Below the pieces are notes generated by a model. That model had not been told where the DNA came from and searched no databases. It was given only the letters and a program-made list of their open reading frames with translations. Both the position numbers and the translations under genes were made by a program. Of a stretch of 64,000 nt of DNA, positions 12,382-64,000 are shown one piece after another; within the stretch, counting starts at the first letter, position 1; every line of letters starts with the position of its first letter. This DNA is from Octopus vulgaris (Eukaryota), in NCBI GenBank assembly GCA_951406725.2, contig OX597818.1:95852001-95916000 (forward strand). The letters are read 5' to 3'.

Positions 12382-12611
12382 AATGGCAGCCTCAACTTGA
12401 CGGACAGATGCCTCATCAATGGCAGAAGGGGGTGACCAGATCTGGGAGCTGTTTCCACAGAGTTCCGACCATGTTTAAATTCACGATGCCAGCGTTTTAC
12501 AAGGTCATATGATGGGGCATCATCACCATAAGTTACTTTCATTTCATCAGGATGTAGCCTGGAGGGTTTTTTCGTATTAATCATTTGGACTTTGTGAACA
12601 CATACCAATTA

Positions 12612-22008: not shown

Positions 22009-22070
22009 TCTGTGTATATATATAAATATATACACATATGTGTATGTGTGTGTGTGGGAGAGAGGGTTTG

Positions 22071-22124
<54 letters not shown>

Positions 22125-34775: not shown

Positions 34776-36052
34776 TTGGATCATCCCATAAATAATATGG
34801 TTTTTTTCAATTGCATGAACTAAAAGTTGGAGGGGGATGGGATAAACTACCTGCATCAACTTGCTATAAAAGCAGGTAGTAAGTTTACTTTGCCCTTATT
34901 CTTAGTGCAAATTTTGAAGAGTGCAGGTCGCTTTTAACAGTTATTTTTTCAAAACTATAATGGAAGTGACAAAGGAGCATATTTGGTATATTTTGCTTTA
35001 TGAGTTTAATAAAGGCAACAACACAACAGAAAGTGCAAGGAATATTAATACAGTATATAGAGATTGGACGATAAGTGTAAACCAGTGTCAATGGTGGTTC
35101 CAGAAATTCCAAGCCAGAAACTTCAGCCTAGAAGATGATCCTTGTCCTGGAAGATTTGTAGATTTCGATGAGGACAGCTTGCAAATCCTGGTGGAACAAA
35201 ATCCCATTGTAGCTGTTGAGGAACTAGCAGAGAATCTTGGATTTGGTCATTCAACCATTCATCGGCACCTGTATGCCATCAGCAAAGTCATCAAATTGGG
35301 TCAATGGGTTCCTTACAAACTATCTGAGTTTAATCATGCATAGAAAGTGAATGTGTGCTCTTCTTTGCTGTCATGTCTCACAAATGAACCTTTTTTAGAT
35401 TGAATAGTGACTGGTGATGAGAAATGGGTTCTCTATAAAAATGTCAAGTGCCGAAGACAATGGGTAGGGAAAAGAGAAACACTGGCACTCCAGGCTAAAA
35501 AAGGTCTTCACCCATATAAGGTGTTATTATCTGTTTGGTGAGATATGAAAGGTTTAGTCTACTTTGAAATTTGAAACCCAAACCAAATGATAACAAAGGA
35601 GATCTGCTGTGAGCAGCTTGAGTGGCTTAAGTGACCTCTAGAAGAAAAATAACCATCTTTAGTTTCAAGACAAAAGGTGTTCTTCTATCTGGATAATGCT
35701 TGACCACACACAGGAAGGACAACATTCCAAAGGCTTGAGCAGTTTGAATGGGAAACGATGCCCCACCCACCATATTTGCTGGACATTGCCCCATCTGATT
35801 ATCATTTATTCCCCAGTCTTCAAAATCATTTGGACAGAAAAAATATGAATTCTGTAGACAAGGTCAGAACAGTACTGGAGTATTATTTTTTGTCATGGAC
35901 AAGTGAATTTTGGAAGAGGGACCTTGCAAGTCTACCAGATATATGGAAGAACATTGTAGAAAATGAAGGAGAATATATTCTAAATTAAAAAGAACTTTAT
36001 TTTAATTTTTGAAAAATAGAAGTATAAAAAAAACCGCATTATTTATGGGATG
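34776..36052 (+). mobile_element. Near full-length mariner, transposase inactivated by stops
   Basis: TIR CATCCCATAAATAAT / ATTATTTATGGGATG. The frame 34960-35988 spans 343 codons with WVPYKL, VTGDEKW, DNA and YLLDIAPSDYHLF motifs and several in-frame stops. Confidence 0.92.
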
Positions 36053-41779: not shown

Positions 41780-41962
41780 GGCACGGGCATGGCTGTGACA
41801 TATATCTCACACCTCTGTCAACATTGTACCTTGCCATTGTGACTCAACACTATTCCACATGATTGCCAAATAACACTATACTACACCAATTCAAGTTGTC
41901 AGCATATTGTAATTTGCCCCCAAGCTTATATGAAATAATACTTTTCTTTCCATTTCTTTCAG

Positions 41963-42358
41963 GTTTCCTATCCCCTCTCACCAGTTTCTCTGCCTCCTCC
42001 CACCACCATGCAAGCTACAGGCGTATTCACATGGCGACAGCCGATGGACGTTAGCTTGTACCCACCAGTAGGGAACCCTTGTGCCTACTTACTAGAAAAT
42101 GCTCTATGCTACATTATATCTGGATTGTTGCTGCTGGTTGTTGGAGTTATTATCACATCACTGACCTTTCAGAACCTTGAGGACTACAAAAATGAGCATG
42201 TCAACCGATACGCAGGGCCTGTCCTGATAGGGGCAGGGATTTTGGTTATCGCTCGCGGTGCCTTAAGTCACCTTTGCCCCCAAAGGTCACAGTTTGCTCG
42301 GCAAAGGTCTTTGCTGCGGAGATATGTGAGAGAATTGTATACGAGGCCTATATTAGGG
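41963..42358 (+). CDS. Host gene exon: two-transmembrane protein (TMEM171/174/200/PIRT-like architecture)
   Basis: Strong acceptor TTTCTTTCCATTTCTTTCAG, ACCATG at 42008 (frame also open from the exon start) and donor GGG|GTAAGT. Two hydrophobic helices (ALCYIISGLLLLVVGVIITSLTF and AGPVLIGAGILVIA) are followed by an Arg-rich segment. The family assignment is an inference. Confidence 0.85.
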
Positions 42359-43335
42359 GTAAGTAGCTGTTGTTGTAATTATTGTTGAAGCATCCCACAG
42401 CCTCTTCTTTATATCCTGTAATTTCACTTTCCCAACAAGGGAAATCTGAAGAAAATTATTTGATATTGCCAGTAATTGTTGAGCATTTGAAGATCTAGTC
42501 TTTAGTGTTTCATCCATGTTGGTGATAAATAATAATTTTTACGCTGGTATAATTTGTAGAGGAGAGGGTAGAGTTGATTGAATTATTTCTAATACATGAC
42601 TAGTTGCTTCATTAAACTTGTTGGTACATGTCACTTGCACTATCTCTTTTACAAGGTGATATAAAATAAAAACTGTTTTACCCAAGAAGAATTTACCTCA
42701 GTTAAAAAAAGATCTGGCAGTAGGTAGGGAATTAACAGATGTTTCACCCATAATATGGTACAAAAGAATCCAAAGACTCAGTCTTCTAACAACAGTTCTA
42801 AAAAAATATTTTAAAAAACCTCCAAAAAACTCATGCTTGACCCTGGAGATTTTGCAAAAAATCAATAGGACATAGATGGAAGAAAGTAAATAATGTAAAG
42901 CAGTTTGGCTGGTGCACTGTAGGGAGCTTCTACTACTCCCTTAATCCTGTGCTAATATTGAATCATATGTAGTAAACATACTGAGTGACATAAATGGCAA
43001 AGTGCCAGATTGAATGGCATAATGTGTTTAGTTTCATCTTGGTATATTCTGAGTTCAAAAACAGGTAATGCAGTGGGACTATATTAGTTTTGCATCTCTC
43101 AGTGGTCAATAAAGTCAATACCAGTAATACAGTTCAAATTAATTATGTTGACTATAGTTGCAAATAGTTACTTATGGCAAAAGACACTTCCCCAAAGTGC
43201 TGCTCACTGAGATAAAAAAAAAATGGAACTAGGTGTTTGAGGAACCAACTTTTTAAACCACAGTTTGACTTTCTATAACCCTTTGATAAATGGTTTTGAT
43301 TTATTGTCAGGGGACATACACACACATATACACAC

Positions 43336-43376
<41 letters not shown>

Positions 43377-43387
43377 CATACATATAT

Positions 43388-43760
43388 ATCATCATCATCA
43401 TCATCATCATCATCATCGTTTAACGTCTGCTTTCCATGCTAGCATGGGTTGGATGATTTGACTGAGGTCTGGCAAACCAGACTACAATCTGATCTGGCAG
43501 AGTTTCTACAGCTGGATGCCCTTCCTAACGCCAACCACTCTGAGAGTGTAGTGGGTGCTTTTACGTGCTACTGGCATGAGGGCTAGTTTGGCAGTACTGG
43601 CAACAGCCACGCTCAAATGATGCTTTTTATCTGCCACCTGCACAGGAGCCAGTCCGGCAGCACTGGCAACAACCTCGCTCGAATGTTTTTTTTTTCACAT
43701 GCCACTAGCACAAGTGGTAGTAAGGCGATGCAGGTAACGATCATGCTTGAATGGTGTTAT
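43388..43760 (-). mobile_element. RTE LINE 3' UTR fragment
   Basis: Closely similar to 51063-51400, including the (CAT)n tail. Confidence 0.85.
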
Positions 43761-44406
43761 ATACATATTTATATATCGGTATATATTCGGCAAAAGAGAC
43801 ATCAGAATAAGTACTGGGCTTGATTCATTCAACTAAACATTCTTCAAGGTTGTGTTCCAGCATGGCTGCAGTCTAATGACTGAAACAAGTAAGAAGTAAA
43901 AAATAAAAGATATAAAAATGACTGATTGACACCAGTGATGTACTGGTGACAGTCAGATCAACTGCATCTCATCTCTTGCAAAGAGTGGTCAACTCAACAG
44001 ATTATTCTTATTAGCAGTTTTATTAAACCTGGAAACCTAAGAAATGGGACAAGTTGTAAAGAACCAGCTAGATTAAATGCTTTGCAGTGTTTAAGTATGA
44101 TCTGTTTTTACTTTGAATTTAAATTATACTTAAGCTGACTTTTGTTTTTATTTCTCCAAGTTTGATAAACTGTGTTTAGAATCAAGTATGAAATGAGGTT
44201 TATTCAACCAGCTATATCCCTACTCTATAAGTTGGTGGCATTGTGCCAACATCAAGAAATATTGCTAAATATGAGTTGGGCAAGATCTTTCCTTCACCTA
44301 CCCCCATTGCTTTCAACAGTGCTGAAAGCTAGCTCTATCTTTCCTTCCCTCCTCTCTCTCTTTGTCTCTCTTTCTGTATATGTGTGTTTAAGAGAGAGAG
44401 AGAGAG

Positions 44407-44455
<49 letters not shown>

Positions 44456-45521
44456 ATGTATGTATACACATACATACATATTAGGCTTTTCTCTGCAATT
44501 ACTGAAGCCTATAGAAATTTTTAGAATCAGATAAGAGTGAACAATTTTCAATGGCTTATCTCCTTATTTCTAGAAGAAATCAATTCCTGCAGATATGTGT
44601 CCATGTTTTGTGTGTGTGTTGGTTGCTTGGTTGTTGTAAATCTATTTGATATTTATATGTGAATGTGTGTTTTTGTGGTGGTATATTTGGTTGTGTGTGT
44701 ATGCATGTTGCAAATATTTATGGTGTGTATGTGTGTTGGGTAAATATGTGTGTGTATAATAACTTTGTTTTGTTGTGTTAAGTGAGAGTATATATGTGCG
44801 TGAATTGTACATGTATGTTGTGCTGTGTGTAGGGTGGAGTATGCATGGATGTGTGCATGTGGAGTTTGTGTGGACATGTACTTGTGTTACACATCTTTCT
44901 AATTTAGTTGTTATATATTGTGTATATTTGTTTTGGGAAATATGTATACATATGAATCGTGTATGTGTATATATGTATGTCACAGTATATTTATGTGGTC
45001 TTTCAATGTGTAAATTTTTACACTGAGTATGCTGTTAATGTCCAGTATGTAATGTTTGTTGATATATAGGAGGACAAACTAAATTCAGTCCTTGAGAACA
45101 AACATGAGATTTTATCATTAAGCCAACAAATTAGGGTAGACCAACTAGTTAATTTAACAGAAGTTTAGCAAGAGGGAATAAAGGGGCAGTTTTCTACAGG
45201 GTGTAGTTGTGAAGAAGCACAAAATTTTCTCTGAGCTATTATATTTGTTAATTAAGATGAATTGGGGGATATACCAAATGGAGTTAACTGGGTGGGGTGG
45301 TAGAAACATTTGTTTATAAACAGGATTAAAAGGTAAAAGAGAGAAAGAGAGAGTGAGTTTATTATGCCTTCGCCTTCATCTTTTATTTTTTACTTTTTAC
45401 TTGTTTCAGTTATTAGACTGCAGCCATGTTGGAACACCACCTTGAAGAATTTTTAGTTGAATGAATCAACCCCAGTGCTTGTTTTTTAAAGCCTGTTACT
45501 TATTCCGATGTCTCTTTTGCC

Positions 45522-45567
<46 letters not shown>

Positions 45568-45572
45568 TTGTG

Positions 45573-45618
<46 letters not shown>

Positions 45619-45714
45619 CATTCATACATATGTATGTATGAGTTTGTTTGTATATATATACACACACACACATACATACATATGTATGTATATATATATA
45701 TACATATGTATGTT

Positions 45715-45747
<33 letters not shown>

Positions 45748-45816
45748 TCACACACATATATATACATATATATTTGTGTGTGTATGTATGTACACACACA
45801 CACACACACACACACA

Positions 45817-45873
<57 letters not shown>

Positions 45874-45983
45874 ACACACACACAAAGTATGGGGGTTTAG
45901 TTCACGGGTGATCTAAATGATTAGGTATGCCAAGTAAGTACTGTAGCAGATCGCTGGAGCTCCATCTCGGCTCTATATATATA

Positions 45984-46215
45984 CAGGGTTAGCCAAAAGT
46001 CACCTGTCAGTAAATCAAAACCAGTTAATTCCAAGATTTATATATGTTTAACAACTGAATGAATTTGATAAAAGCATCTAAATATGAAACATCATGAAAA
46101 TTGTTCAAATGATGTCCTTCATGAGTGACATATTTTCCCATTTGAGCCAATACAGAATTATAGATAGTATTTATGGGATTTTGATTTACTGTCTGGCGAC
46201 TTTTGGCCCACCCTG
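45984..46215. mobile_element. Tc1-like MITE (232 bp)
   Basis: TA|CAGGGTTAGCCAAAAGTCACCTGTCAGTAAATCAAAA ... TTTTGATTTACTGTCTGGCGACTTTTGGCCCACCCTG|TA. Confidence 0.88.
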
Positions 46216-46514
46216 TATATACTTGACTAGCTTCTTTCAGTTTCCATCTGCCAAATACACTCTCAAGGTTTAGTTGCCCCAAAGCTATAGTAGAAGACAC
46301 TTGTCCAAGGTGTCATGTAGTGGAACTGAGCCTGGAACCATATGGTTAGGAAGCAAGTTTCTTACCACACAGCCATGTCTGCACCTATATGTAAAGTGCA
46401 TTTAAAAAGTTGAACTATATTTGTCATTTAATATCAATTCATCTACTATTAAATAAAAACATAAGATCTAATCATTGTTGATTAATTCTCAGATGTATAG
46501 CTGTTATTTTCCAG

Positions 46515-46594
46515 CTTCGCAATGATTCTTCAAATCTCTGTGACATACGAGTATCAGAGTCTCAAGACATAGCAGAAATCCAAGAATGTCCCAG
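46515..46594 (+). CDS. Host gene exon (80 nt, phase 0-2): LRNDSSNLCDIRVSESQDIAEIQECP
   Basis: TTATTTTCCAG acceptor and CAG|GTAAGA donor. Open in the frame left by the exon ending at 42358. Confidence 0.75.
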
Positions 46595-46979
46595 GTAAGA
46601 TTCCTATGGATGTCTGAAGGGAGTTCTTTTGCTATTGGTGGTGGTAGTTGCAGGTAAGTATTGTGACAGGAGCAGGACTAAGTAAGTTTGGTTTTGTACC
46701 AAAGAGATATGTCAAGTGCTTGAGTAAAAGAAATGAAAGTTATACCACTATAATTTACATCTTTAGCTACTATCAACTACCATAATAATGCCCCTATAAA
46801 CTACTATTCTATCTTCTCTTATCACACATCTATGCCACTGTGACTTTTATTTCTAGCTACCATCTACTACCATTACATATTAACACCAGAAGTATTCAAA
46901 GTTGCTAAAATGTTTGACAACACAATTTCTGATGATTTCTCATGACAATCCTGCATCTTTAATATAACCCAAACTCAAA

Positions 46980-47390
46980 GACCAAGCTTTCACTTCAAAG
47001 CCCCCAAAATATTTAATTTCTGATCAGTTACTGACTGAATACACAGCTCAAATAAGATCTACACTGGTGCTCTACATACTTATATGTAATAGTCAGTTGC
47101 TCATCCACAAACATTTTAGACTGTATCCAAAAGAAAACTTTTCAATTGATTTACAATGACTCATTCACAAACACACAACAACCTCTGACTTAGAGTCATG
47201 CTGTTGCTTCTCTCTACTTCTATTGCTATTAAAATGGTGTTCGTTCCTTTGAATTAGCTAGTTGCACACCACCTCTGTTCATCTCTACTTCAGCCACCTT
47301 ACTCTCCTTCTCCCATGAATTTTCTGCATCCCATCTTTTAGACCCCTCCATGAATCATATTATCCAATCTTTTTCACAATCTTTTCAAAT
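46980..47390 (+). pseudogene. Old LINE (Jockey/CR1-like) ORF2 C-terminal remnant
   Basis: Remnants LDCIQKKTFQLI, QPL, HAVASL and FY..NG..ELA. Confidence 0.45.
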
Positions 47391-47689
47391 TCCTACTTCT
47401 GTCATCTTTGCCTACTCTAACAATCACTATCATTGCATACTTATATCACCTTCACCTTACTTTGCTGTTAACAATCCATGTTACCATCACCTACCTCTAC
47501 TATAGCTACTAACCACTACAACCACATGTCTGTACCACTCACCTATCTCTTCTGTAGCTACCAATGCATATCCATACTGATATCACCTAACTCTACTGTA
47601 GCTATCGTCTATGACAATCACATCTTTCTTACCACTGTCACCTACCTCTGCTATAGCCACCGTCTGCTACCTCCATAAATCTATACCTA

Positions 47690-47917
47690 TTTCTTTATTA
47701 CCCACAAGGGGCTGAACATAGAGGGGACAAACATGGACAGACATAGGTATTAAGTCGATTATATCGACCCCAGTGCTTAACTGGAACTTAATTTATCGAC
47801 CCCAAAAGGATGAAAGGTAAAGTCGACCTCGGCGGAATTTGAACTCACAACGTAACGGCAGACGAAATACCGCTAAGCATTTCGCCCGACGTGCTAACGA
47901 TTCTGCTAGCTCGCCAC
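47690..47917 (-). mobile_element. Young tRNA-derived SINE, second family (Meta-domain-like core)
   Basis: Minus strand reads GGCGAGCTAGCAGAATCGTTAG, GAGTTCAAATTCC (B box) and CCTTTCATCCTTTTGGGGTCGATAAATTAAG. The domain name is from memory. Other copies are at 32770, 38580 and 60510. Confidence 0.85.
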
Positions 47918-48293
47918 CTATACCACCTCACTCACCTCTATTATGTAGCTGCAACTTAGGACCACCACATGTCCACACCACTGTTACCACTTACCTCTGC
48001 TGTAGCAACTATCAACTGTCGTCATATGTCCACATCACTATCACTTACTTTTACCTTTGCTATCAACTACTATCAGCACATGTCCATGTTGTCATTATGT
48101 AACTCTTCAGTAGCTGTTATCCATTACAATCACAAGGCTATATATCACTATCACTTACCTATACTATACCTACCATCTACTACCCATGTCACTAATTTTA
48201 TTTATCATTTTAAAATATTTCTTCCTTGTCTTTTTCATCTGAATATTGTTGATCTGAAATGTTAACTTAATGAAATCTTTGTAAACATTTCAG

Positions 48294-48326
48294 ACCAACC
48301 AGACCAACTACACCAACATTTTTGAG
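48294..48326 (+). CDS. Micro-exon (33 nt, phase 2-2): (R)PTRPTTPTFL
   Basis: CATTTCAG acceptor and GAG|GTAAAA donor, frame-compatible with the previous exon. Confidence 0.6.
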
Positions 48327-51062
48327 GTAAAATCTATACATGTTCTTCTTTGTTGTCATGTGTACAAATTTCAGTTTATATTTTTTGTCAACACTGTCAC
48401 ATCACTGAAGACTAGACTTTCGGATCCAAAGAAATATATCGTGTCACAGTTTTAGCAATAATGTCTGTGAATACTCTTCATTCTTGTTTTGTTTTAGTAT
48501 CTATAATGCAATACCACTATTCATGTGGATTATCTCAAATGTGAGCGATCTTTTTGCAGAGAATATCTTTCAAGATCATTGTAGTTGAAGGAACTGAGAC
48601 TGTTAAAAAGCTCACCATCTCATCATCAAAAACCTACATCACAGGAGACAGGTTGTTGCAGCAACAGTGCTCTATAAAATTCACACAATATAAAGCTCTT
48701 CAGTGCATTGAACAATGTTGTCACTGCAGTATGGATGCTATTGTACATATAAAGACTAATACATTCATTCATGCTTATGCATACCCTTCAACACTTGATG
48801 CCAAAACTTACACGTTGGTCAAAATAAGGAAGGAACTTTCAGAAGCTGTCATCAGAGCCATGTCTATAATACACCTATTGTCATTGTCACCATCAGGAAT
48901 ATAGTGAACTAATAGATATCTGGTTATCTGTTTACAATCCTATTAACCCATTAACATCCAGTGGTGCTATTGTTCACAAATGCATCCAGTAAATGAATTT
49001 TAAAAAGTATAGTTTTTGCTAACTGTAAAATTATATATCAGAATATCTTCAGGTAGTTGTTTGTGATTATATCAAACAATAGTGAGGATCTTTTGGCCAG
49101 TTCCTGGGAAACTGGAAGAATGAATTAGAAGCAGAATTATATTCTAAGTCTGTCATGACAGTGTTAGGGGCTCTACAGTATATTCTAAGTAGTCTGTAAC
49201 CAGACGTTCTGTTCAGGTTGCATGTCATTTGTGTTCTGTGTTAATTGGATGCTGATCTAAAATTGCAATCCTATTTCCCCATCTCACACTTTACTATGTC
49301 CCTTGTAGATACATCATGTTCTACTAAAGCATTGTAGAGACACAGAGGGAAGCAGTTCATGTGATGACATAACTCCTGTTCTTATATTCATGCTTGCATT
49401 CAAACATACCTCTACTCAGTCTCTTGATTATAAAATTAACACTCAACCTTATAACTATTTGTAATCATTTACAATATTCATCATCAATACTCATCATCAT
49501 ACTTGTACTCATATGAATACTCATCCCTACACAGCTACTCAGCCTCATACATGTCTTCATCCTCATAACTCTCTCTATCCATATTTCTATTCATTCTCTC
49601 TAATCCCTTTGGTCTTCTTTGCTATTGTGTCTTGTTCCTGAATCAGCATTTATGTTGTATTATGCCTGATGAGAAACAGATTATCCTTCATTTATAGTCA
49701 GCAAGTACACACACACACACGTGTGCACGCACACACACATGCGCATGCGCACTCATGCATACACACGCACACACACACACACACACATACACACACACAC
49801 ACACACACACCGAGCCAACTTCAATCATCAAACAATCATTATGTTTAGACACCATCTAATAATACCTCATATATTTGTAAACATTTCATTCTAGTAAAAA
49901 TAATAACAAAATTTACTTTAAAACACAAAAGGGATGACTCATCTTTGATGTCATCTTTCATTTATCTAGTCTGTTGTTGTTGTTGTCACAATTCTTATTG
50001 TTGTCATTCACACCGTTCCATGCATTGTCTTGTACTTTGTTGTAAAGTTCTATTTTTATTGTCATTGTGTTAAATAAATAATTATACTGGTTTAGGTTGG
50101 TGTTCCTGTTGTTGCTGTTATTATTTTTTAAACTGCTTGAATTTGCTGACGTTACTGTTTTTGCTGCTGTGTTATTGATGTTATTGTAGTTGTTAACTAT
50201 GATGACAATGATGACGACAATATTAATATTAATGATGATGATGATGATGTTAACGATGATGCAGTAAATACATAGTAAATTAAGTGTCATCTAATTTCAA
50301 TTTCTGGTTGAAACTATTTCCACCTTATGAATGCTACATCCAATTTCTTCAGCTCTATAAATCTGGGAGTTCATTTCTATATAAGAAATTATGACCACCA
50401 CCACTAATCATCCTCACTATTGTTGTCAACATCATAGTCCTCATCAATGTATATGTCATCATCATTTGTACTGACATGACTATCACCACTACTACTACTG
50501 CTGCCACCACCACCAACAACAACAACACCGCCGCCGCCGCCGCCACCACCACCACCATCATCAGCATCACCATCATCATCATCATCATCATCATTATTAT
50601 TATTATTATTATTATTAGAGCTACTATTATTAAAGCTGGAATGAATTTATAATGATTGAGCAACGAGCTTGTGGTATTTAGTTGTAACCGTTTAAATTCT
50701 AAGTTCAACTTTGCCTCACATCCAGTAATGTACTAGGTTCACTTTACCTTTTCATTCTTCTATTCCCAAAGTTTTTTTTTTTTACAATAACATTATACTT
50801 ATGCAAGAAATTATTCTTATTATTGTTATTAACTCTTTTGATACCAACCTTCCTGAAATCACCTTTAGTTCCCTGATTCAATTTTCCTGTTTTAAAATTC
50901 TCCAAATTAAAATGTCATATCAAAATTTCACATTAATCTATGCTCCAAACACCATTGTAATAATGACAAAGTTATTTAAGTAAATTTTTCACTATTTTCA
51001 AAATTAATTAAAACAAATGCAGTGTATCTTTGGGTTGATAACATAAGAATCAATTTACTAGC

Positions 51063-53690
51063 ACATCATCATCATCATCATTATCATCATCGTTTAATGT
51101 CCGCTTTCCATGCTAGCATGGGTTGGACAATTTTGACTGAGGGCTGGTGAACCAGATGGCTGCACCAGGCTCCAATCTTGATATCTTGATCTGGCAGAGT
51201 TTCTACAGCTGGATGCCCTTCCTAACGCCAACCACTCCGAGAGTGTAGTGGGAGCTTTTTACGTGCCATTCAGGCGGTACTGGCAATGACCTCGCTTGAA
51301 ACTTTTTACACATGCCACCGGCACAGGTGCCAGTAAGGCGACGTTGGTAACGATCACGCTCGAATGGTGCCCTTTTACGTGCCACTGGCATGGAAGCCAG
51401 TTGGCTGCTCTGGCAACGATCACACTTGGATGGTGCTCTTGCCACCCTACTAGCACGGGCACAAGTGCCAGTAAGGCGATGCTGGTAATGATCACACTCG
51501 AATGGTGTTCTTTTATGTGCTACTGGCATGGAAGCCGGTTAGCCGCTCTGTCAACAATCACACTCATATGGTGCTCTTTGCACCCTGCTAGCATGGATGC
51601 CAGTCATCGAATTTGATTTTGATTTCGATTTCACTTGCTTCAACAGGTTTTCACAAGTAGAGTTTAGTGACCAAAGAAGGAAAAGGTATGCATAAGCGGG
51701 CTGGTTATGCTCCTGGCATAGGCCACAGGTTATGGTCTCATTTGGCTTGCTGGGTCTTCTCAAGCACAGCATATTTCCAAAAGTCTCGGTTGCTAGTCAT
51801 TTCCTTGGTGAGGCCTAATGTTCGAAGGTCGTGCTTCACTACTTCATCCCAGGTCTTCCTGGGTCTGCCTCTTCAACAGGTTCCCTCAACTGCTAGGGTG
51901 TGGCACTTTTTCACACAGCTATCCTCATCCATTCTCGCCACATGACCATACCAGCACAGTCGTCTCTCTTGCACACCACATCTAATGCTTCTTAGGTTCA
52001 ACTTTTCTCTCAAGGTACTTACACTCTGTCGAGTATGCACACTGACATTACACATCCATCGAATCATACTGGCTTCATTCCTTGTGAGCTTACGCATGTC
52101 CTCAGCAGTCACAGCCCATGTTTCACTGCCATGTAGCATGGCTGTTCGTACACAAGTCTCATACGGTCTACCTTTTACTCTGAGCGAGCGGCCCTTTGTC
52201 ACCAGCAGAGGTAAGAGCTCCCTAAACTTTGCCCAAGCTATTCTTATTCTAGCAGCTACACTGCTACACTTTCAGCGCACCCTCCTCTACTACTGACTTG
52301 GTCACCTAGGTAACGGAAGTTATCAACTACTTCTAGTTTTTCTCCCTGGAATGTGGCGGAAGTTGTTATCTGCACATTTTCAGTGTTTATTGCTCAGGAG
52401 CATCTCCCACATACAAAAACTATCTTCCCAGTTAGCCTTCCTTTGATATTATTGCACCTCTTATGTGTCCATAGCTTACACTGGGTACATCTTATAGAGT
52501 TTCTACCTACGCTTCTACTACAGATCGAGCAGGGCCATCTACCTGAAGAGATTTGTGGTTTGCCTGCCTTCCTACTTATTAGGACTTTGGTTTTAGCTAG
52601 GTTGATTCTAAGGCCCTTCGATTCTAATCCTTGTTTCCACACTTGAAACTTCTCCTCTAGTTCTGATAGTGACTCAGCAATTAGAGCAAGGTCATCAGCA
52701 TAGAAGAGCTCCCAGTGGCATCCTGTCTTGAATTCCTCCATTATTGCCTGGAGGACTATGATAAATAGGAGGGGGCTGAGGACTGAACCTTGGTGGACCC
52801 CTACCTCTACTCTGAATTCTTCAGTGTACTCATTGCCAACCCTCACCTTACTTACAGCATCCCTGTACATGGCTTGCACAGCTCTCACTAACCATTCATC
52901 TATCCCTAGTTTCCTCATTGACCACCAGATAAGGGATCGGGGGACCCTGTCAAAGGCTTTCTCCATGTCAACGAAAGCCAGGTACAGGGGTTTATCTTTG
53001 GCTAGGTATTTCTCCTGCAGTTATCTTACCAGAAATATGGCATCAGTGGTGCTTTTCCCTGGCACAAAACCAAACTGCATCTCATCCAAGCTGACTCTCT
53101 CCCTAATCAGTTGGGCTATAACCCTCTCTGTAACCTTCATTACCTGATCCAACAGCTTGATACCTCTGTAATTATTTGTATCTAAAGCGTCACCTTTACC
53201 TTTGTAGCAGTTGACTATTATGCTGCTACACAAGATATTGGGTACGACTCCTTCGTGTATCACCTGGTTAACTATACGGTGACTAGGCTATAGCCGACAC
53301 TGCCAGATATTTTGAGCATCTCTCCAGTAATTCCTGATGGGCCTGGGGCTTTCCCTGTCTTCATACTTCTAATTGCCTTATCTACCAAGGTACTGTCAAC
53401 TCGGATAGCTGGTCCCTCTGTTGAGTCAACATTCGGCAGACACTCTTTCTCCCATTCATTTTCTTTATTCAGCAACCTTTCATAATGGCATCTCCAAACC
53501 TCTCTCTTTGCATCCTCATTTAGAGCAAGTGAACCATCATCCATGCGAACACATTTCTTTCCTACCACATCACGATTCTCTCTCACGTACTGTCTTGCAA
53601 CACGAAATACCTCAAATCTTTGGTCCTCACAGTGCAGAACATTGGCAAATTTTTTCTTATCTGCTTCCCCACTGGCTAAATAAATCTGCC
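51063..53690 (-). mobile_element. 5'-truncated RTE-clade LINE with stops and frameshifts
   Basis: GKAPGPSGI, NYRGIKLL, QFGFVPGKSTTDAIF, DMEKAFDRVPR, GVHQGSVLSPLLF, YADDL, FRYLG and HGSETW motifs. The 3' UTR has ~61-bp tandem units and a (GAT)n tail. Confidence 0.93.
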
Positions 53691-56600
53691 CTGTCCTGCA
53701 AAATTCCAGGCCTTGTGCCTATAATAAAAAAGATTGTTTGCAGAATGGATTATGTTACAAAGAGGAAATGTAAAATATTGCCACATTTAAAATTAAAATG
53801 ATATTTATATTTTATTATCATCATCAACATCACATCATCATCATTGTCACCGTTGTTGTCGTCATCGTCATCGTCGTTGTCATAATCATCATCATTTAAC
53901 GTCCATGTTCCATGTTGTCATGGATCAGTCTCTGGCAACTAAATATGCAACAGTATAACTATGGAGTGTATAACCAGGTTATCACTGCCTCCAAAACTGT
54001 GACATCTTGTTTTGTAAATAGATATATGAAGTTGAAAAAGAAATGTTGTTGATGAATAGGCTGTGTGAGATCTATTGGATGTTTTGTTAAGGTGAAGTAC
54101 AATGGAAATGAAAATGCAACTGACAAACAAATATGTTGGTTCTCCATATAAAATATTATATGTTGTGGTGTCGGGGAATTGGCATGGTTTTATAGTAGAT
54201 GGTGGATGTGATTTAGAAACATAGGTAGAAGAAGGTGGAAGGAGACCTGAGATGCTGTTTTATAGGACCTGTAACAATGTTGTTGATGATGATGACAACA
54301 ACAATGATGATGATAATAATGATTGATATTGTTATATATATAGATTGTTATAACAATAATAGCCATGATGTTGATGATAGAGAGAAATAGGATGTTGAAG
54401 GAAACAACTAGGTTTTATTTCATAACTGGCATTTTTTGCAAAATCTTGTATCATGAGAAAAGGAAAAAAGAATTGAAAATTCTTTCACTTTACCTTCTTT
54501 CTTCTCCTTACATACAAAATATTCCCATTTTTTTTTTTTTTTGTGTTGCAAGTTCATAAATGTGTACAAAACTGCTTTATTGATAAACATCTTAAAGTTT
54601 GGTGCTGATGCTGTAAACTTCTCAGTGAATGTTGAAACTTGTTATGATAAATGGTGCAACTTGCTGTCAATAATGCCACTTAATATGGATTTTGCCGTTG
54701 ATGGTAAAATATGAAGTAGATATTGCAGTGTGCAGTATATGGTTTATGACTTAATGTTGATGGTTAGAGATGTAGTCAATAATTCTATGTACAATAGATA
54801 ATATAACTTTCAAATAATATTGCAACTTAGTGTAAGTCAGCATTGTTGTTACTAACAGTCGTGTGATTGAAAACTGGTTCTTTGCATTTGCTTGTATCAC
54901 ATTCCCAATAATAACCTATTAATTCCTCTCTTGATTTTCATTCAACTTCATTTGGGCCTTGTAGGATTAGAACTGAAGTTTCTTTTCCTAATGTCAGAAA
55001 TTGAATATTTGCAGAGAAGTGACAATTATTTCATTTAGCCAGTACACTGATATGAAATATAATGTAATGTTAAGGGATTCATAACTGATTGCACTTAACT
55101 CAAATTTCATGGACAGGACAACTATGTATCATAGATAATATTCCTAGATGACCTGGTACCTTTAACAGACAGATTGGTTGACTGAGACAATTTAGAATTA
55201 GGAGAAATTCCCCAAATACACCTGATGAGATAGAATTACAAATGAGGTAATCCTTCTGTGAAGTAAATCCCAGCTACTGCAAAGCATGGTGCTGCATCAG
55301 TTATAACTGTCAAGTGATGTTTTGTGCCAGCCAGTCACTTGATATACATAGACTGCAATGACACGGACACCAGAAGAAAGAAAAACAGAACTGTTCCAAG
55401 AAAACCTAGCACTAAATTTTCCAGAAACACCTCAAATACGTGAGAGCTTTTTTGATATGAGTGGTAAGATCTGCAGCAGATTGATCATGCTAGATTGAGC
55501 ATTCTGCCTCATATGTTTCACAGTGCAGAAGGACTTTAAGTCTAAATAAGTAATATGCTGGAGCCTAGCGGCAGGTATTTAAAGGGAAAAATTTGACAAG
55601 TCAGTTAGTCAGTGGCTGACACTCGCTGATGATACATCGAAGAGGCCAGGAAACAGCAGAAAGAAGAAGAAAGAAGACATGCACCCAACACCAGAGCTGA
55701 AGACACCTCCGAAAGTGGGGGCCTCGCCACGTCAAAACGGTAGAGGAGTAGGGGCTGAAACCGGACGTGGTTCCTCCTGATGATGTCTTGAGCTAACTGG
55801 ATCCTATAAAGGAGCTGTTGTGGTAGCAGACCACGAAACATGGTTGTAATTCCTCCATATATGTCTTCTAAACTCTTGTGCTTATTACAATATGTTAAGT
55901 TGATGTGAGATATTTGTCACCCCAGACAGGAAATTGTTATTTTGTAAGTACAATATTCTACAATATTCTAGTATCCATGCTCTGATAGCTTGGTGAGCTA
56001 TGGAAATGTAAAATTTTGAATTAAATCTATGCAGCAAGACTCCTGTTGTGTGTTTGAGCACACATCAAATATATGGTAGTGTAAGTTTGTTCCAGTTTAC
56101 CTTGGAATTGTGATATAACATGCCCATGCAACTTGGAAAGAATGGTGTGATGTACTAGTCACTGTGGCATTATTACCAACTTTGTAAATTGACTTCTGTG
56201 TTGTCTTATAAACAACATAACAAAGGATCAGGATCAGTGACAACATATTATGCAACAAACCAGTTCCACATATGGCAGCTTGGAAATATAAATGTAAAAC
56301 CAAAGATTTCATATATTTACTTTTACAATTTACATTTCAAGTTCAAATATGGCCAACCTTATTATTGATTTTTTTCTGGTAGTAAATAAATAAATTGATT
56401 AAATTACACCCCTTTCAAAAAAAAGTCTTATGGCTATTTAAAACAAATGGTTATTAAACTTGTTGTGGTGAACTGATTACTAAGTCATCTAGTTTTCCCT
56501 GTACCATTTTCCCTTTCTATCAGCCACACTAATGTAACTCTGCACCTTACTCTATTCCTCACCGATTTATATTTCTTACTTTCTCATGTGTCTGTTACTT

Positions 56601-56821
56601 AAACCATACCTCATACGATTACTATTATACACACTGCAACCACTCACAATGACACTCTCAGGATTCACATTATCCCTGCTTACATCATAACTAATACCAC
56701 TGACACCAGCTATTCAAATCACTGCCACTGCTACTACCACTAACACCTATGATATCAGCACCACTCAGTGTTTGACTCAGTAATGTACCAGTGCTGTTTC
56801 AAATTTCTATTTTACTTACAG

Positions 56822-56857
56822 TATCCAGTACAGCCCTGGCCCGCCATCTTACTCCAG
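56822..56857 (+). CDS. Micro-exon (36 nt, phase 2-2): (S)IQYSPGPPSYS
   Basis: TTTCTATTTTACTTACAG acceptor, CAG|GTAACC donor and a PPSY motif. GC-rich island in an AT-rich intron. Confidence 0.75.
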
Positions 56858-57697
56858 GTAACCCACACTTCTAACACTTACCTAAATTTTTCAACTGCCT
56901 TGTTCCTGGTGGAGCTGCTTACATTCTAATAATATCAGTAGGTTTCTGATATATCTTGAATATAAACCCAACCAACATTGAAGTATTCTAGGATGGTGGG
57001 AACACTTAAATCAAAATTCTGTGGAGAGTTACCTTTGTATAAATCCGGATTTAGATATACAAGAAAACCAAATCACACAGCCAGCCATGTATGATGTCTA
57101 CCAAACTTCCACAAATACCTAAACATATAACAGCACACTACAACAATACTACAACAAGAACAAATACATTCCCTGTACTATATGTTCACTCGTCATAAAC
57201 ATGTTAATACATTAAGAACACACTATAACATTAGAACAACACAGATTTAGGTACTCCATCTCTCAGTTCAAAATGGCACACACACTCTTACACTCACACA
57301 CACTTCACAAACACATTTACACACACAAATATATGTACATGTGTACATTAAAACATTGCGGCATCAAAAATTTTATTCGGTCCACAGTATCGCATGCAAA
57401 AATATTTCTACTTTTGTTGTGGACTTTAAACAAAATTAATGGTAAGACGGATGTAATATTACATAGCAAATCATTGAATGATAGAATGTGCATCATGGCT
57501 TTTACACTTGACTTAAGATTGAAATTAGTAGAGTTGTGAGTTGCTCCTAATTGTTCAATCATTTACTTTCTTCTGATCTGATCAAGCAGAGCTGATCACA
57601 GGTGAAAAAATCTTTTTCTTTTCTTAGTTGAATGAAAAGGATTAGAACCTATGATGTCTGTAGGTCCTCAGAGAGTGGTGTGGGTTGAATCCTTGTA

Positions 57698-57896
57698 CAA
57701 GGGGCTGCTGTAAAGTTCTTGGCTTTAAGGGTATCACAAGAGGCCTGGTTGGAAGCCCAACCTTTCACAGAGCTTAGAAAAACTGCTGCAATAAGCATGT
57801 AAATCTGAGAGGGGAATATATTGAATAAAATCAAAATTCACTGATCCTCATGTATTTTCTTTTACCCAAAGCCAGGAACTTTTCAGTACCACCTTG
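57698..57896 (+). mobile_element. Mariner-derived MITE, same family as 8393-8609
   Basis: TA flanks, matching TIRs and a collinear interior in the opposite orientation. Confidence 0.85.
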
Positions 57897-59076
57897 TAAG
57901 TATATAGCTGAAGGAACAACATAGAACTGGTAAAAATTCAAAGAGCTCCAGTTTTGAGTAAAAATGATTGTGTAACATGTTTAGTGCAGGATTTGGAAGG
58001 ATACAAAGATGTGGTTGCATTGTGTGCACTAGGCAGTTGACAGTTTGTAATTTGTTTGTTTGGTTGAACAGAAACCATTCTAATAGTGAGAGAGAGAGAG
58101 AGAGAGAGAGTAAACTATGCCTGTGAGCCAGTAGTTGTCATGTGTTGATGAGTGAATCATTAGTAATCAGTCAGAGCCTTACATGTAATATAGAATATGG
58201 AATATATGTATGTGTCTCTGATCTAAATATGTGAGAAGTTTACAATGTGGGTCATATTTGAACCTTGTAGAATGTCAGCAAATGATAATGGTTCAAATAT
58301 CTTTTAGTTCTGAAGAGAAATATCCTTTGCGATTCACTTTTGAAAATGCTATTTTTCTGAGGTTGCAAAAAGAAATTATCAGAGACTGGGAGTGAAATCT
58401 CTTAGTACTTTGTAACTTTGAGGGCTTTCACTAGGTGTTGTTTAAATGGAGAGTGAGTGTAATAAAAACCTTTTCCTTCATATGTGCAGTAACTGTGTGT
58501 CACTGTGCCATTAAAGGAGACCAAAGTTATTTGTTGATTCTCAACCAACAACATTAGTGTGATATTCAAAGTTAACGTGTGAGTCATTCTACCCTACTAA
58601 TTCTTCTGAGTATTGAATGGTTGGTTACTTATCTGACTCATACTCGTAGATTCAATATATTATTATAAACTGCCATAATATGTGTTCCATATTATATATC
58701 AAAGCTGATTGGAGTAAAAGGACTGGGCAAAAGCACTATTGAAGAGATATAGAAATTCTTTTATTTTCATTAAAGCATCATTGCAAAATGTTGGGCTACT
58801 CCTTATTATGTAATCATTGTAAAATGGGCATTAGCACCCTTGATATGGTCATCCAAAAAGTTTTAATTAAATGCAATTGAGAGTGAGTTTGATCTTTGGC
58901 AGCATGGGCACAACTCCTGACATGCTTCAGTTTTAATAGACTGCTTCAATAAAGTGTGCACATATGTGTGTGTCTGTGAATGTATTTGTGTGTGTGTGTG
59001 TGAGTTTGTCAGTCCATTTGTCCATCATTTGTTTGTATTGGATCTGTGAATCAAATGGTATTATTTCTATTGACAG

Positions 59077-59112
59077 TACACCATACAGTCCTCTGCCACC
59101 AGTGTATACAAG
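59077..59112 (+). CDS. Micro-exon (36 nt, phase 2-2): (S)TPYSPLPPVYT
   Basis: ATTTCTATTGACAG acceptor, AAG|GTAAAC donor and a PPVY motif. Paralogous to 56822-56857. Confidence 0.75.
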
Positions 59113-59804
59113 GTAAACCTATACACTCCCAACAGAACAGCTTTCTCTAGCACTATACTGCATACTAAGCCTTAACTTTCATGTGAGAGAAGATCTGCAC
59201 TTATGTAAACTTGATATCTCAATCCAGTATAATGTACAATATCCCATATCTTGTATTATTGTATAGTATAACACATCCTATTGTAACATGTGCCTCACAT
59301 CATTGCAATATACAGCATTATACTGTCTATATGTTCGTCATGATACAGTGACTACTATCACTGTACTGCATATATGTCTGCCATAATATAGCAACAAACT
59401 AATCACTATACTGTCTAGCTTCCTATCATAGTATAGTAACATATCAATCACTGTATTGTAGTATATCCATCAGTAATGTCAATATATTCACCACCACATC
59501 TATACTTATATTATCTACTCTAAGGTATATTTCTTACAGTTGTAACAAATACTCACAACTCATATGTTTCTATCCATATCTACTATTGTAACACAGTCAC
59601 CATTCCATTTTTTAACAATCAATGCTTTTCCTTTATTTCTGTATCAATCCCAATATCTTCCTCTCCTGATACGATAACGCTTTAGAGCCACTATTCTTAT
59701 GTTGTAACCAATTTCATACAAAATAGACACTCTTTTGCACAAAAGTCTTGTCCATCTTTAAATTTGGTCATCTAATTGTCTACTCTACCTTTATTTCTCA
59801 TTAG

Positions 59805-59840
59805 TGCTCCAGCCACACCACGGCCATTTTTCTTTGGCAG
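59805..59840 (+). CDS. Micro-exon (36 nt, phase 2-2): (S)APATPRPFFFG
   Basis: CTTTATTTCTCATTAG acceptor with CTAAT upstream, and CAG|GTATGT donor. Same length and phase as the two preceding micro-exons. Confidence 0.7.
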
Positions 59841-60813
59841 GTATGTTTATTTCATTCATCTTTAACAATATTAGCGTGAAAATTTGGCAAATATTGTTGA
59901 GAAATCAAATTTACAAACTTGGTTTCAGTTTTTGTGTGGAGTTCATTTAAAATCTTATACACTGCTGATACCCTTGAGAAAGTCATAAATATCACCGTAT
60001 CTCATATACTTCTCATTTGGAGATCTTGTGCTGACATAAATTATTATATATTATATAAATTCATACCTATGTATTTTATACATACATACAAACATATATA
60101 TTTGTTGCTGCCCTTGTGCCAAAATGTGAAACCATTATTATTATTTGAGTTGAAGAAACAGAACAATAAAAGAGTTATATCCTTGCTATCAACAACACAT
60201 TTACCCATTCCCAGACAAAATCAAAATCATCAGTGTCCTCAATGTGACTTCATAGCAAAATCCATACCTGGACTCAAATTACATTCATGCATCCATCACA
60301 AACAGATGCAGCTTCATTTATTCTTTTATTTTTAAAGTTATTCTTTACTTTGTCTCATTATTTTTCTTTCAAATCCTCTCCTTCAAACACTCATACGTCA
60401 AAATTGATGGGAGTGACCAACTACCACCACCACCACCACCACCACCACCACCACCACCACCACCACCACCACCACTACCATCATCATCATCATCATCACA
60501 ATTGTTAACATGCCAGACAAAATGCTTAGCGGTATTTCACCTATTGCTATGATCTGAGTTCAAATTCTGCTGAGGTTGACTTTGCCTTTCATCCATTTGG
60601 GGGTCAATAAATTAAGTACCAGTTATGCAGTGGGTCAATGTAATCGACTTTCCCACTCCCACTAAGTTTCAGGCCTTGTGCCTATAGTAGAAAGGATTAT
60701 TATTATGAATTTTTTCATATACATACGCACAAACTTATATATAATATATATATATATATATATTTATAGAGAGAGAGTAAGAGAGAGAGAGAGAATAAAG
60801 TGTATGTATGCTG

Positions 60814-60844
<31 letters not shown>

Positions 60845-60849
<5 letters not shown>

Positions 60850-61422
60850 CAAAATAGGACAAGAACGCAAAACATCCAGACAACTAGGTGATACAAAAAG
60901 GGACAACAAAACATCTAGATAGACGATACAAAAAAACAAGGATGGGTCATTCAAAGCTTTCTATCCTCAATCAAGAACCAGATCATCCTCTCAATTTTGG
61001 ATGATTAATCTTGAGATTGCTCCAATCTGGCCAGCCCCAAGGAAAAACTAAGCTTAGAGCATTAGATTCCTTGGAAGAAAGCATCGAATGCATACAAAAA
61101 CAAGGATGGAAAAACAGACAATGTTACACAAATATAAATACCATATAAATACTATAAAAATAATAACAGGACATAACAACAGGTGTCTTTTGACTGGGGA
61201 CGAATTGAATTCAGCTGGCATGTGTGGAAATGAAGCCTTACGGCAGAGATACAAAAGTTTCACAAACACAGGGAAGAATATTGATGTTGCACAGACTATG
61301 GTCAGATATATATATGGATACAAAAATTTCACAAACTCAGGGAAGAATATTGATGTTGCATGGACTATGGTCAGACTCAAAAAGGGAGCTAGCAGTCTGG
61401 CCTATGATATATATAATTGGCA

Positions 61423-61425
<3 letters not shown>
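60845..61425. mobile_element. Unclassified ~580-bp repeat inserted in (TA)n with internal duplications
   Basis: Bounded by (TA)n on both sides. A 59-bp duplication occupies 61248-61306 and 61317-61375, with a shorter one near 60867-60935. Confidence 0.5.
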
Positions 61426-61471
<46 letters not shown>

Positions 61472-62695
61472 TTGTTCAAGTTTAATAAAATTTGATATGT
61501 ACTCAATGCATGAAGTATCATTGTTGGGCCTAAGGCCCGATGAAGTGCCTTTCACAGGAGCTAGCTTAAAAGCCACTTTTAAGTGTGTGTATGTGTGTGC
61601 AGGTGGGTGATTACACTATATTTGTAAATAAGTGTCACTGTCACGCAAGTGGAGTTTTTGTTTATAGTCTTCCAAAACATATATGTCTAGAAATGGAGAA
61701 ATATTACCTAGCTTGGAAACAGGTGTATGCTAGTGACATGTAAGGCATTCAGTTGTAGAAAATTTGTCTCAGCAAATTTTGTCTGACCCATGCTCCCATG
61801 GAAAAGTTGATACTAAAATGACAATGATGATATACAGGCACGTGTGTGTGTTTGCATGCCTTCTTCATGTCATAATATTTGCATGCTGATTGAAAAGCAA
61901 GTCACTTCTTATACAAGCAGTGTCAGTTGTTAGCAATCTTCTGATGAGACATGTTTGGCTTTTGAGCTGTTTTTTCTTGATGGATAATTTTAAAGGAAAT
62001 ATTAGTTTTTGTTTGGAAAGAGGTGAGAGTTGGTAATAGAAAAAGCATTCAGTGGTAGAAATTATTGTGCTTAAGTTTCATCTGATCCATGCAAGCACAG
62101 AAAAACAAGCATTGAAATAATGATGATGATAATGATGTGTGTGTGTGTGTGTGGTGGTTGGGGTATGTGTTTGTATTTATTTCACTTCTTGAGAACATAT
62201 GACTATAGCACAATTTTAAGTAGTGTTAAGCTTTTGAAATTTATAGATTGTCAGTTATCTTAACAAAATATGTAAATACTCCTTAATATTTGCTCTAATC
62301 TAACATTTCATATTTTCTTGATCTATCTTGATCTATTTTTTACATTGTGTCTTTTATTTTCATTTCATTTCAAGCTTACTGTCATTTTGTTGACAATCAT
62401 TTATTGCCTATATTTGGAATTTTATAATCATCATCATTGTTTAACGTCCACTTTCCATGCTGGCATCGGTTGGACAGTTTGACTGAGGACTGACAAACCA
62501 GAAGGCTGTACCAGTCTCCAATCTGATCTGGCAAGGTTTCTACAACAGGATGCCCTTCCTAACGTCCTGTTTTAAAATGTACACTGACAGGTGATTGTGC
62601 TTGGTGTTGTGTTACCTCACTACTCATCTGAGCAGGGTAATGTTGCTGGATTGTCTGCTGTTGTAAATTTTCAATACCTCCATTTCGTTACCTCC

Positions 62696-63165
62696 ATGAG
62701 TCATTAATATGCAGGAGGATGTAAAAAACAATTGTATTTTCATAAATGCAATATTTATGGTAATTTTGTCTGGTGTAAATAGAAAATAACTATGGGTGAG
62801 ACCAAACCATTTGAAAACCAAACTCATCTTTCCATTATTATGTTGACAACTGTCATGTAGATAGATCAATTCTTATGGAACATTTGTTACTTGAGTGTGA
62901 GATATTTTGATAGAATATTTAATAATGGGTGTTGCTGTCACTCTTATTGGTTATGGTTTTCTTACTGAAAAATGAATTAAGGTTTTAAGCAGACCCTTCA
63001 TGGTACAATCAGTAAATATATGGTTCAACATATATCTTTTCACTATAAAATGAGTCATTAATATGCAGAAAGATGTAAAAAACAATTGTATTTTCATAAA
63101 TGCAATATTTATGGTAATTTTGTCTGGTGTAAATAGAAAATAACTATGGGTGAGACCAAACCATT
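62696..63165. repeat. 116-bp direct repeat pair
   Basis: 62696-62811 and 63050-63165 differ at 2 positions and are separated by a 238-bp spacer. Confidence 0.92.
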
Positions 63166-63759
63166 GTGATAGTTGCAGTAATCATTGTCATTTAACTGTT
63201 TCTTTTGTTAGACATGTTCCTTCATTGAGTTTCATATAGGACTGAACTATGCCTATTCATAGAACTTACAGTAAGGTAAATGCAGCCAATGTATGAAGAG
63301 CAATTTACTATATCTTTTTACATAGAGATCACTATGATAATGACAATGATATGAATAATGATGATGATAATGACAATAACTATAGGTTTTTTCCTTATTA
63401 TTGTCATCCAGGCCCATTCATTCAGACAATAAAATGTATACAAAGGTGTTACAAAATAGGTGGAGACGAATGAAAGAGAATTAATTATACATAAACAAGG
63501 GGCACACTAAAAACACTAAGCAGTATATTGAAGCATGTTAATTTTCTCAATTTAAAAAAAATTATGCAAAAAAATGAAACATATATGTATGTGTGTGTGT
63601 GCGCGCGCGTATAAATTAACTGTTATATCCATACATACATACATACATACATACATACACACACATATATATATACATACTAATTTTTATTTATGGATTA
63701 ACAAGACAACCGATGATTCCATGTGGAAAACTTTTCCACAATCTTCAAGTGATCCACTT

Positions 63760-63858
63760 GAGAATGTTGGTAATTGTCTCCATTTTGGATGAGAATGCTG
63801 GTAATCACCTCTATTTTGGATGAGAATGCTGGTAATCACCTCTAGTTTGGATGAGAAT
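63760..63858. repeat. 31-bp minisatellite, ~3.2 copies
   Basis: GAGAATGCTGGTAATCACCTCTATTTTGGAT units start at 63760, 63791, 63822 and 63853. Confidence 0.9.
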
Positions 63859-64000
63859 ACATGAGGTTATGCTAGTGTATGTGGGATTTCAAAATAGATA
63901 CACAGATCAGCAGAGGTGACTTATAAGACTTTTTTAATGGTTATCTCTCTTGCATTGGCCCTGGATTTTTGCAAGAATTTACATTCATCCTAAATGATTA

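Follow-up and report, generated by a model that had tools for sequence, protein, structure and literature searches.

An Octopus gene for a predicted two-pass membrane protein with four optional micro-exons that vary its PPxY motifs

The stretch of DNA analysed here (the window) comprises 64,000 nucleotides of the Octopus vulgaris genome (assembly GCA_951406725.2, contig OX597818.1, positions 95,852,001 to 95,916,000 of the forward strand). It contains part of a gene predicted to encode a small membrane protein with two transmembrane helices (TM1 and TM2) and a polar tail bearing PPxY (PY) motifs. Exons E2 and E3 are followed by four micro-exons, here called cassettes A to D, and by a last coding exon that lies 3.56 kb past the end of the window (Table 1). 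We find that the cassettes are skipped in many combinations without loss of frame, and that skipping alters the number of both PPxY motifs and serine/threonine-proline (S/T-P) sites in the tail.

Gene structure and the cassette exons

A preliminary description, made from the letters of the window, had proposed six spliced segments, and its coordinates are sound: all six are preceded by AG and followed by GT, cassettes A (33 nucleotides, nt) and B, C and D (36 nt each) are in phase 2-2 with AG/GT ends, and the segments joined by coordinates form a single frame without a stop. That description had established no stop exon and allowed that the array might continue beyond the window; the stop exon has now been found and the array ends at D. 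It had also called the tail 'built from' micro-exons, which overstates their part, because in the full form of 260 residues the cassettes supply only 141 of the 780 coding nt (18%) and 47 of the 176 tail residues. The gene as a whole spans 26 kb.

Table 1. Features of the gene and of the window (positions are those of the window unless another locus is named; record counts refer to the 36 listed cephalopod records described below)
Feature	Position	Strand	Description
Open frame, 634 residues	20168-22072	-	
E2	41963..42358	+	Start ATG at 42008 (used in most records); both predicted helices, at about 42095-42169 and 42209-42268, with a short loop; basic juxtamembrane stretch
A>G candidate	42229	+	ATA to ATG, Ile74 to Met in TM2; UAG context; in contigs of three of the four runs
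E3	46515..46594	+	80-nt constant exon, phase 0-2; supported by the arithmetic of the X10 contig
Cassette A	48294..48326	+	33 nt, Pro/Thr-rich, one T-P, without PPxY; in 15 of 36 records; spliced in the X10 contig
Cassette B	56822..56857	+	36 nt, YSPxPPxY module (PPSY); in 28 of 36 records
Cassette C	59077..59112	+	36 nt, second YSPxPPxY module (PPVY), extra T-P; in 14 of 36 records, each of which also has B
Cassette D	59805..59840	+	36 nt, one T-P, without PPxY; separates the optional PY motifs from the constant ones; in 20 of 36 records
Last intron, part within the window	59841..64000	+	Runs to the last coding exon outside the window
Last coding exon	L002:3562-3772 = G000:C5:95919562-95919772		Two constant PPxY (PPPY, PPSY), acidic linker, C-terminal S-R-L, stop TGA

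E2 is single copy, with one match in the genome. Its aligned part shows 100% identity with records that bear the names Octopus vulgaris, O. sinensis (LOC115212097) and O. bimaculoides (LOC106881110), all of them uncharacterised. Public Octopus protein records contain the peptides of A to D without a single difference; the gene and its cassette exons are already present, uncharacterised, in public annotation and database models. No published description of the gene was found by locus or accession identifiers in the open-access literature (supplements excluded), and the titles and passages returned for microexons in cephalopods held nothing on it. Isoforms of O. bimaculoides carry a 39-residue N-terminal extension from an upstream coding exon, for which an 81% match lies at L010:8721-8798 (G000:C5:95830721-95830798); this match has no GT at the corresponding place, and a GC donor and a non-coding state in the O. 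vulgaris genome are both possible.

In-frame phase-2 segments of 9-60 nt were scanned with hand-made splice-site scores across the whole window, giving eight candidates on the + strand and two on the - strand. Of these, B, C and D alone contain three or more prolines; A fell below the acceptor threshold. With a relaxed threshold, the interval between E3 and the last exon yielded ten candidates on the + strand and one on the -, A now passing, and five of them were proline-rich: A to D and a 54-nt stretch (52256-52309), rejected, which lies inside a retroelement remnant and appears in no record. Look-alike peptides at 47300 and 59485 were also set aside and are not among the splice candidates. 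Between E3 and the last exon neither splice score nor peptide motif revealed any cassette beyond A-D. By the same hand-made scores the acceptor of A (-0.2) and the acceptor and donor of C (2.2 and 3.3) are weak. The neural microexons of the eMIC/SRRM4 programme are included specifically in neurons, in dependence on Srrm234. Passages of PMC8797185 describe them as having a UGC near the 3' splice site, a long AG-free zone and a strong branch point. Here, UGC occurs within 40 nt of the 3' splice site in one of the four cassettes (B, at -30); the AG-free zones of the cassettes measure 147, 28, 62 and 57 nt, and the lengths are close to the 31-nt fly median.

Isoforms and the origin of the cassettes

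Among the matches listed from our searches and from 20 clusters, with up to 15 members given for each cluster, were 36 full-length cephalopod records, which are not independent of one another and which display at least 12 of the 16 possible inclusion patterns and at least 13 of the 15 junctions; O. sinensis alone provides ten patterns (isoforms X1-X10). Together with a contig from sequencing run X10, these records bear out the preliminary proposals of combinatorial skipping and of a variable number of PPxY and S/T-P sites. Two further elements of the proposal fared less well. Each exon had been taken for a PY cassette, and PPxY is found in only two of the four, B and C. Inclusion had been taken to be free, and all 14 of the 36 records with C also contain B, the four combinations unseen among them being exactly those with C and without B. 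Because C comes only with B, PPxY among the cassettes is confined to these two and the last exon holds two more, the PY count rises in steps from two to three to four.

Six inclusion patterns are seen in 17 Logan proteins, which derive from contigs of 1.2-1.8 kb. Their source is presumably a more distant cephalopod (72-77% identical; 'the other cephalopod' below), and the contigs are probably spliced transcripts, since the octopus gene extends over many times their length. Four sequencing runs (X1, X2, X3 and X10) were also examined; that they are RNA is a guess, and their contigs carry no inclusion levels or tissue labels. Contigs of all four runs cover E2, aligned exactly from 41963 to 42357, and a 683-nt contig of X10 takes the path E2-E3-A-last exon, with B, C and D skipped. 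Within it, E2 occupies record letters 143-537 and the last exon letters 1-30, the letters of exon A form a loose end, and the 112 letters between the two matches equal 1 + 80 (E3) + 31 (A minus the shared AG). The last exon was matched by the X10 contig only, and the missing matches in X1, X2 and X3 may be false negatives; the alignment of the four runs over 41900-60000 is dominated by repeats, and exon joints are not among the rows listed. The E2 contigs of X1 and X3 run on for 402 and 377 letters past the E2 donor without placement, for which a filter miss and a further 3' exon are both possible. Run X1 also yielded a 245-nt contig (depth 2.2) that is unspliced across B.

In gastropod and bivalve relatives the part corresponding to E3 is joined directly to that of the last exon, and all 17 tails counted have exactly two PPxY motifs; the Argonauta record contains A, B and D. 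Cassettes B and C have the common layout YSPxPPxY and are identical at 21 of 36 nt, a value reached by 31 of 100000 shuffles, although this identity would be inflated by codon constraint on the common motif and the flanks of B and C are not alike. The resemblance suggests that C is a duplicate of B. The cassettes probably arose on the cephalopod line within a single ancestral phase-2 intron, with C produced by that duplication, and this gain is placed on the line without a date because no Nautilus-named record was among the matches. Between octopus and the other cephalopod, 11 of 11 residues are kept in C, 8 of 11 in B, 6 of 10 in A and 6 of 11 in D, compared with 11 of 38 in the constant acidic linker; by this comparison the cassettes appear to be conserved in the manner of motifs, unlike the linker. 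Cassette D has 15 residues in the other cephalopod against 12 in octopus, a change of whole codons.

These comparisons bear on the view that skipping is tolerated noise, in which splicing randomly passes over weak sites within long, repeat-rich introns, symmetry preserves the frame, and the resulting mixture has no regulated role. The poor acceptors of A and C fit such an account, as do the breadth of the junctions that occur and the absence of tissue data. We nevertheless think it very unlikely, given that inclusion varies among Octopus records and also in the other cephalopod, some 72-77% identical, that the peptides of B and C are far better kept than the constant linker, and that D has altered its length by whole codons.

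The preliminary description had also likened the gene to the micro-exon genes (MEGs) of schistosomes, in which, according to passages of PMC4350168 and bioRxiv 10.1101/2023.06.21.545858, most of the coding region is divided among 10-20 tiny symmetric exons, a signal peptide is present and evolution is fast. The resemblance holds for exon symmetry and for isoforms produced by frame-keeping skipping, and goes no further, three of the four traits tested having failed. Rather than a signal peptide there is a first hydrophobic window at residue 25, with the cassettes on the predicted cytosolic side (from hydropathy only); rather than a multi-copy, fast-evolving family there is one genome match, with C and B conserved as above; and there are four cassettes here, not 10-20. 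Since the cassettes amount to 18% of the coding sequence, the octopus gene is not a schistosome-type MEG, and a role in encoding variable surface antigens, for which the short symmetric exons and their combinatorial skipping would speak, is hardly credible for a single-copy, conserved gene with predicted cytosolic cassettes.

Searching 1.84 billion representatives with a profile produced 34 matches at E <=0.001, and a wider profile reached a protein of the annelid Capitella (97% probability against the mollusc profile), with three PY motifs located after the hairpin of helices. This protein belongs to a distant two-pass branch (P0121, P0123, P0125, P0127, P0128 and P0132) that is nearer to the TMEM100 model, at up to 31.5 of the 34 bits required, and could link the mollusc family with TMEM100 and TMEM174 of vertebrates. 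Variation at another junction was seen in gastropod records (P0011, P0042, P0043, P0044); in Biomphalaria and Lymnaea an insert of 11 residues follows the E2 part, and in Biomphalaria it is optional; Babylonia has an optional 2-residue insert.

Elsewhere, the window holds stretches that resemble mobile elements. By its motifs the open frame at 20168-22072 (-) looks like a Penelope-type reverse transcriptase with a GIY-YIG end; the stretches at 2729-3484 (-), 11569-13306 (-), 34918-35988 (+) and 16576-17490 (-) are presumably remnants of mariner/Tc1-like transposases, and the A-B intron presumably contains a broken reverse transcriptase resembling that of long interspersed nuclear elements (51873-53718, -). 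A short repeat in the E3-A intron (47683-47890) has a very high summed contig depth.

Protein features and affinities

Hydropathy places two hydrophobic segments at 19-residue windows that begin at residues 25-40 and 68-72, and seven of the 32 residues after TM2 are basic; from hydropathy and charge both ends of the protein are predicted to face the cytosol. In the full form the PPxY motifs are at positions 162, 174, 200 and 248, those of B (PPSY) and C (PPVY) being optional and the PPPY and PPSY of the last exon constant. The protein thus has several conserved PY motifs on its predicted cytosolic side, the constant pair being present in 20 of 20 tails and the number rising to four in cephalopods. 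The octopus tail of 176 residues has 16 arginines and no lysine. In all 20 tails lysine is absent from 20 residues before the first PY through the last PY, and seven of the 20 relatives lack it from the entire tail, the others having one to three. A class I PDZ-type C-terminus (S/T-x-L) ends 13 of the 20 tails, comprising octopus, the other cephalopod and all 11 gastropods, and is absent from the six bivalve-type tails, which retain both PY motifs and the lysine gap. The constant PPxY pair, the lysine-free tail and the S/T-x-L end, all missed in the preliminary description, carry most of the functional argument.

MAGI proteins combine WW and PDZ domains, and the PDZ-type end beside PY motifs in 13 of 20 tails invites an explanation in which both features dock non-ligase WW/PDZ scaffolds of this type, or WW proteins of the Hippo pathway, so that the cassettes would change the choice of scaffold at junctions or synapses. 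This leaves the missing lysines unexplained, and the bivalve-type tails that lack the S/T-x-L end have kept the PY motifs and the lysine gap; we judge it quite unlikely.

Affinities of the hairpin are weak. Against Pfam, E2 scores 16.9 bits with TMEM100 (PF16311) and 17.3 with PIRT (PF15099), below the cut-offs of 34 and 30.6, with matches over the helices at E 0.005 for TMEM100 and E 0.004 for PIRT. Of 14 aligned members, 12 repeat the TMEM100 match (E <=0.1), and the best distant relative reaches 31.5 bits on PF16311, so that a distant kinship to TMEM100/PIRT is possible; tetraspanin and CD3-zeta models score similarly, as hydrophobic helices do. Family searches also gave a sub-threshold likeness to TMEM174. 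Among solved structures only CD3-zeta helices were matched, at E 0.29 or worse, and no NDFIP1/2 family or structure was among the Pfam or solved-structure matches. The Atlas resource returned feature scores of 0.84-0.94, pointing to a TMEM252-like cluster (0.93-0.94, a lead only) and to unnamed arthropod clusters, and itself grades its family call as probably wrong. TMEM252 (PF15664) was pursued and rejected: it is absent from the Pfam matches, and its model gave eight weak places in the genome, none over the cut-off and none at the locus. TMEM100/PIRT, TMEM174, TMEM252 and TMEM51/61/139 resemble the octopus protein in that their hairpin lies close to the N-terminus and their polar tail is long, but in these sequence comparisons no match reaches any curated family cut-off. 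The open-access literature on TMEM100, PIRT and two-transmembrane proteins together yielded nothing.

Extensive adenosine-to-inosine (A-to-I) recoding of RNA is known from coleoid neurons, and the change of Ile74 to Met in TM2 is possibly a case of it, an allele also being possible. The same change appears in eight of the 17 Logan proteins of the other cephalopod, and all 17 genome-derived relatives have Ile at this position. Across the first 143 residues of the other cephalopod the four variable sites (T8A, I37M or V, I74M and I81M) are all compatible with A>G; a last-exon change in one of 19 records is not. Octopus codons 8 and 37 (42029 and 42116) could be recoded in the same way. E2 folds no better than its shuffles (z of -0.19), with the candidate A in a short hairpin, at the end next to the loop, and a crude search found no clear partner strand for a long duplex within about 3 kb. 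The Ile74 site could already be listed among the recoding-site tables of published supplements.

PIRT and TMEM100 have roles with TRP channels, and the protein may accordingly be pictured as an auxiliary subunit that serves an ion channel or transporter, with PY motifs that control the surface lifetime of the complex and cassettes that tune it. This overlaps with the adaptor reading set out below, the hairpin rather than the ligase being central. It is encouraged by the PIRT and TMEM100 matches and the near approach of the distant relative to the TMEM100 cut-off, by the highly conserved hairpin with its basic stretch after TM2, and by the candidate recoding in TM2. We hold it to be unlikely, in that every match is under its curated cut-off, tetraspanin and CD3-zeta models do equally well, and Atlas points elsewhere with a call that it distrusts.

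A candidate splice-tuned adaptor of ubiquitin ligases

The reading we favour, with modest confidence, is that the gene encodes a two-pass, NDFIP-like membrane adaptor that would recruit and activate NEDD4-family ligases, splicing setting its valence at two to four PPxY motifs. PPxY motifs bind the WW domains of these ligases, and from known PY-WW biology the two constant motifs would give baseline binding. Inclusion of B, then C, would add the third and fourth motifs, each closely preceded by an S-P site that is a potential target of a proline-directed kinase, while A and D would alter spacing and add T-P sites with no further PY. Because the tail lacks lysine, ubiquitin would be placed mainly on partner membrane proteins and less on the adaptor itself; such partners would probably be bound by way of the conserved helical hairpin, or by a PDZ scaffold attached to the S/T-x-L end. 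Ligase activation would in this way be tuned by splicing. Observations in favour are the two PPxY motifs of the gastropod- and bivalve-type tails and the PY motifs of the annelid protein, the lysine gap, the skipping itself and the motif-like conservation of the cassettes. In NDFIP2 all three PY motifs are required for full disinhibition of WWP2 (passages of PMC12720080), and dense PY arrays on membranes or polymers activate NEDD4-family enzymes (passages of PMC5892558).

Several points weigh against this interpretation. PPxY also binds WW proteins that are not ligases, and the adaptor function, like the tissue regulation of the cassettes, is a prediction. The isoform records are not independent, and RefSeq models can chain short-read junctions into combinations never read whole; only one spliced cassette path has been read directly, and C was not seen in contigs of the four runs, with a depth of 0 in its bin. 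The weak splice sites of C, together with limited sampling, may explain the rule that B precedes C without any dedicated control. Lysine deserts are enriched 2.4- to 3.3-fold among proteins of the ubiquitin system, but of the 200 leading human lysine-desert proteins 41% are of the plasma membrane and only 12% of the ubiquitin system (passages of PMC10169902), for which reason the missing lysines are suggestive only.

Several known systems resemble the proposed arrangement in part. Fast troponin T (exons 4-8) has serial short symmetric exons and many isoforms, which tune charge or length, whereas the octopus modules are ligand motifs. PY motifs are carried by alternative exons of WNK1, which are large. 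Alternative splicing of these exons, 11 and 12, makes a variant a target of Nedd4-2 (passages of PMC11381001); WNK1 is a soluble kinase without other PY motifs, while the octopus micro-exons add to two constant ones. Exon 26 of ERBB4/HER4, which distinguishes CYT-1 from CYT-2, is likewise a short in-frame tail cassette that adds a ubiquitination-directing PPxY (passages of PMC3681029), but there a single exon of 16 residues is switched on or off, and the receptor kinase that carries it is itself the substrate; in octopus there are four cassettes, two with PY, that give graded motif counts on a small non-enzymatic protein with a lysine-free tail. NDFIP1/2, Commissureless/PRRG4, TMEM127 and LAPTM4/5 are small membrane proteins with cytosolic PY motifs (predicted to be cytosolic in octopus), and activation by such membrane adaptors depends on PY number and membrane clustering; no sequence relationship of the octopus gene to these adaptors was found in the Pfam and solved-structure searches. 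No membrane PY adaptor with a micro-exon array that determines how many PY motifs it has was encountered in the open-access literature, again with supplements excluded.

A more speculative extension, which we regard as doubtful, is that an old two-PY adaptor became a splice-coded valence dial in cephalopods. B and then C would raise the docking motifs from two to three to four, passing a clustering threshold of NEDD4-family ligases in chosen cell types; A and D would govern spacing and the input from kinases. Recoding of the hairpin by A-to-I editing, at a site common to distant cephalopods, would change the partner handed to the ligase.

The response of WW-HECT ligases to PY number and density has been tested with mutants, engineered tethering or polymers (passages of PMC12720080 and PMC5892558), and the octopus gene would offer a natural series of two, three and four motifs on one scaffold, for which the two-motif form of snails and clams would serve as control. 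Its value is that of a good test system, not of a new principle, because the exons already stand in database models and the splicing of PY cassettes is known from ERBB4 and WNK1. For cephalopods it would represent a compact case of post-transcriptional protein diversity, with four exons gained in one intron and possibly RNA recoding in addition.

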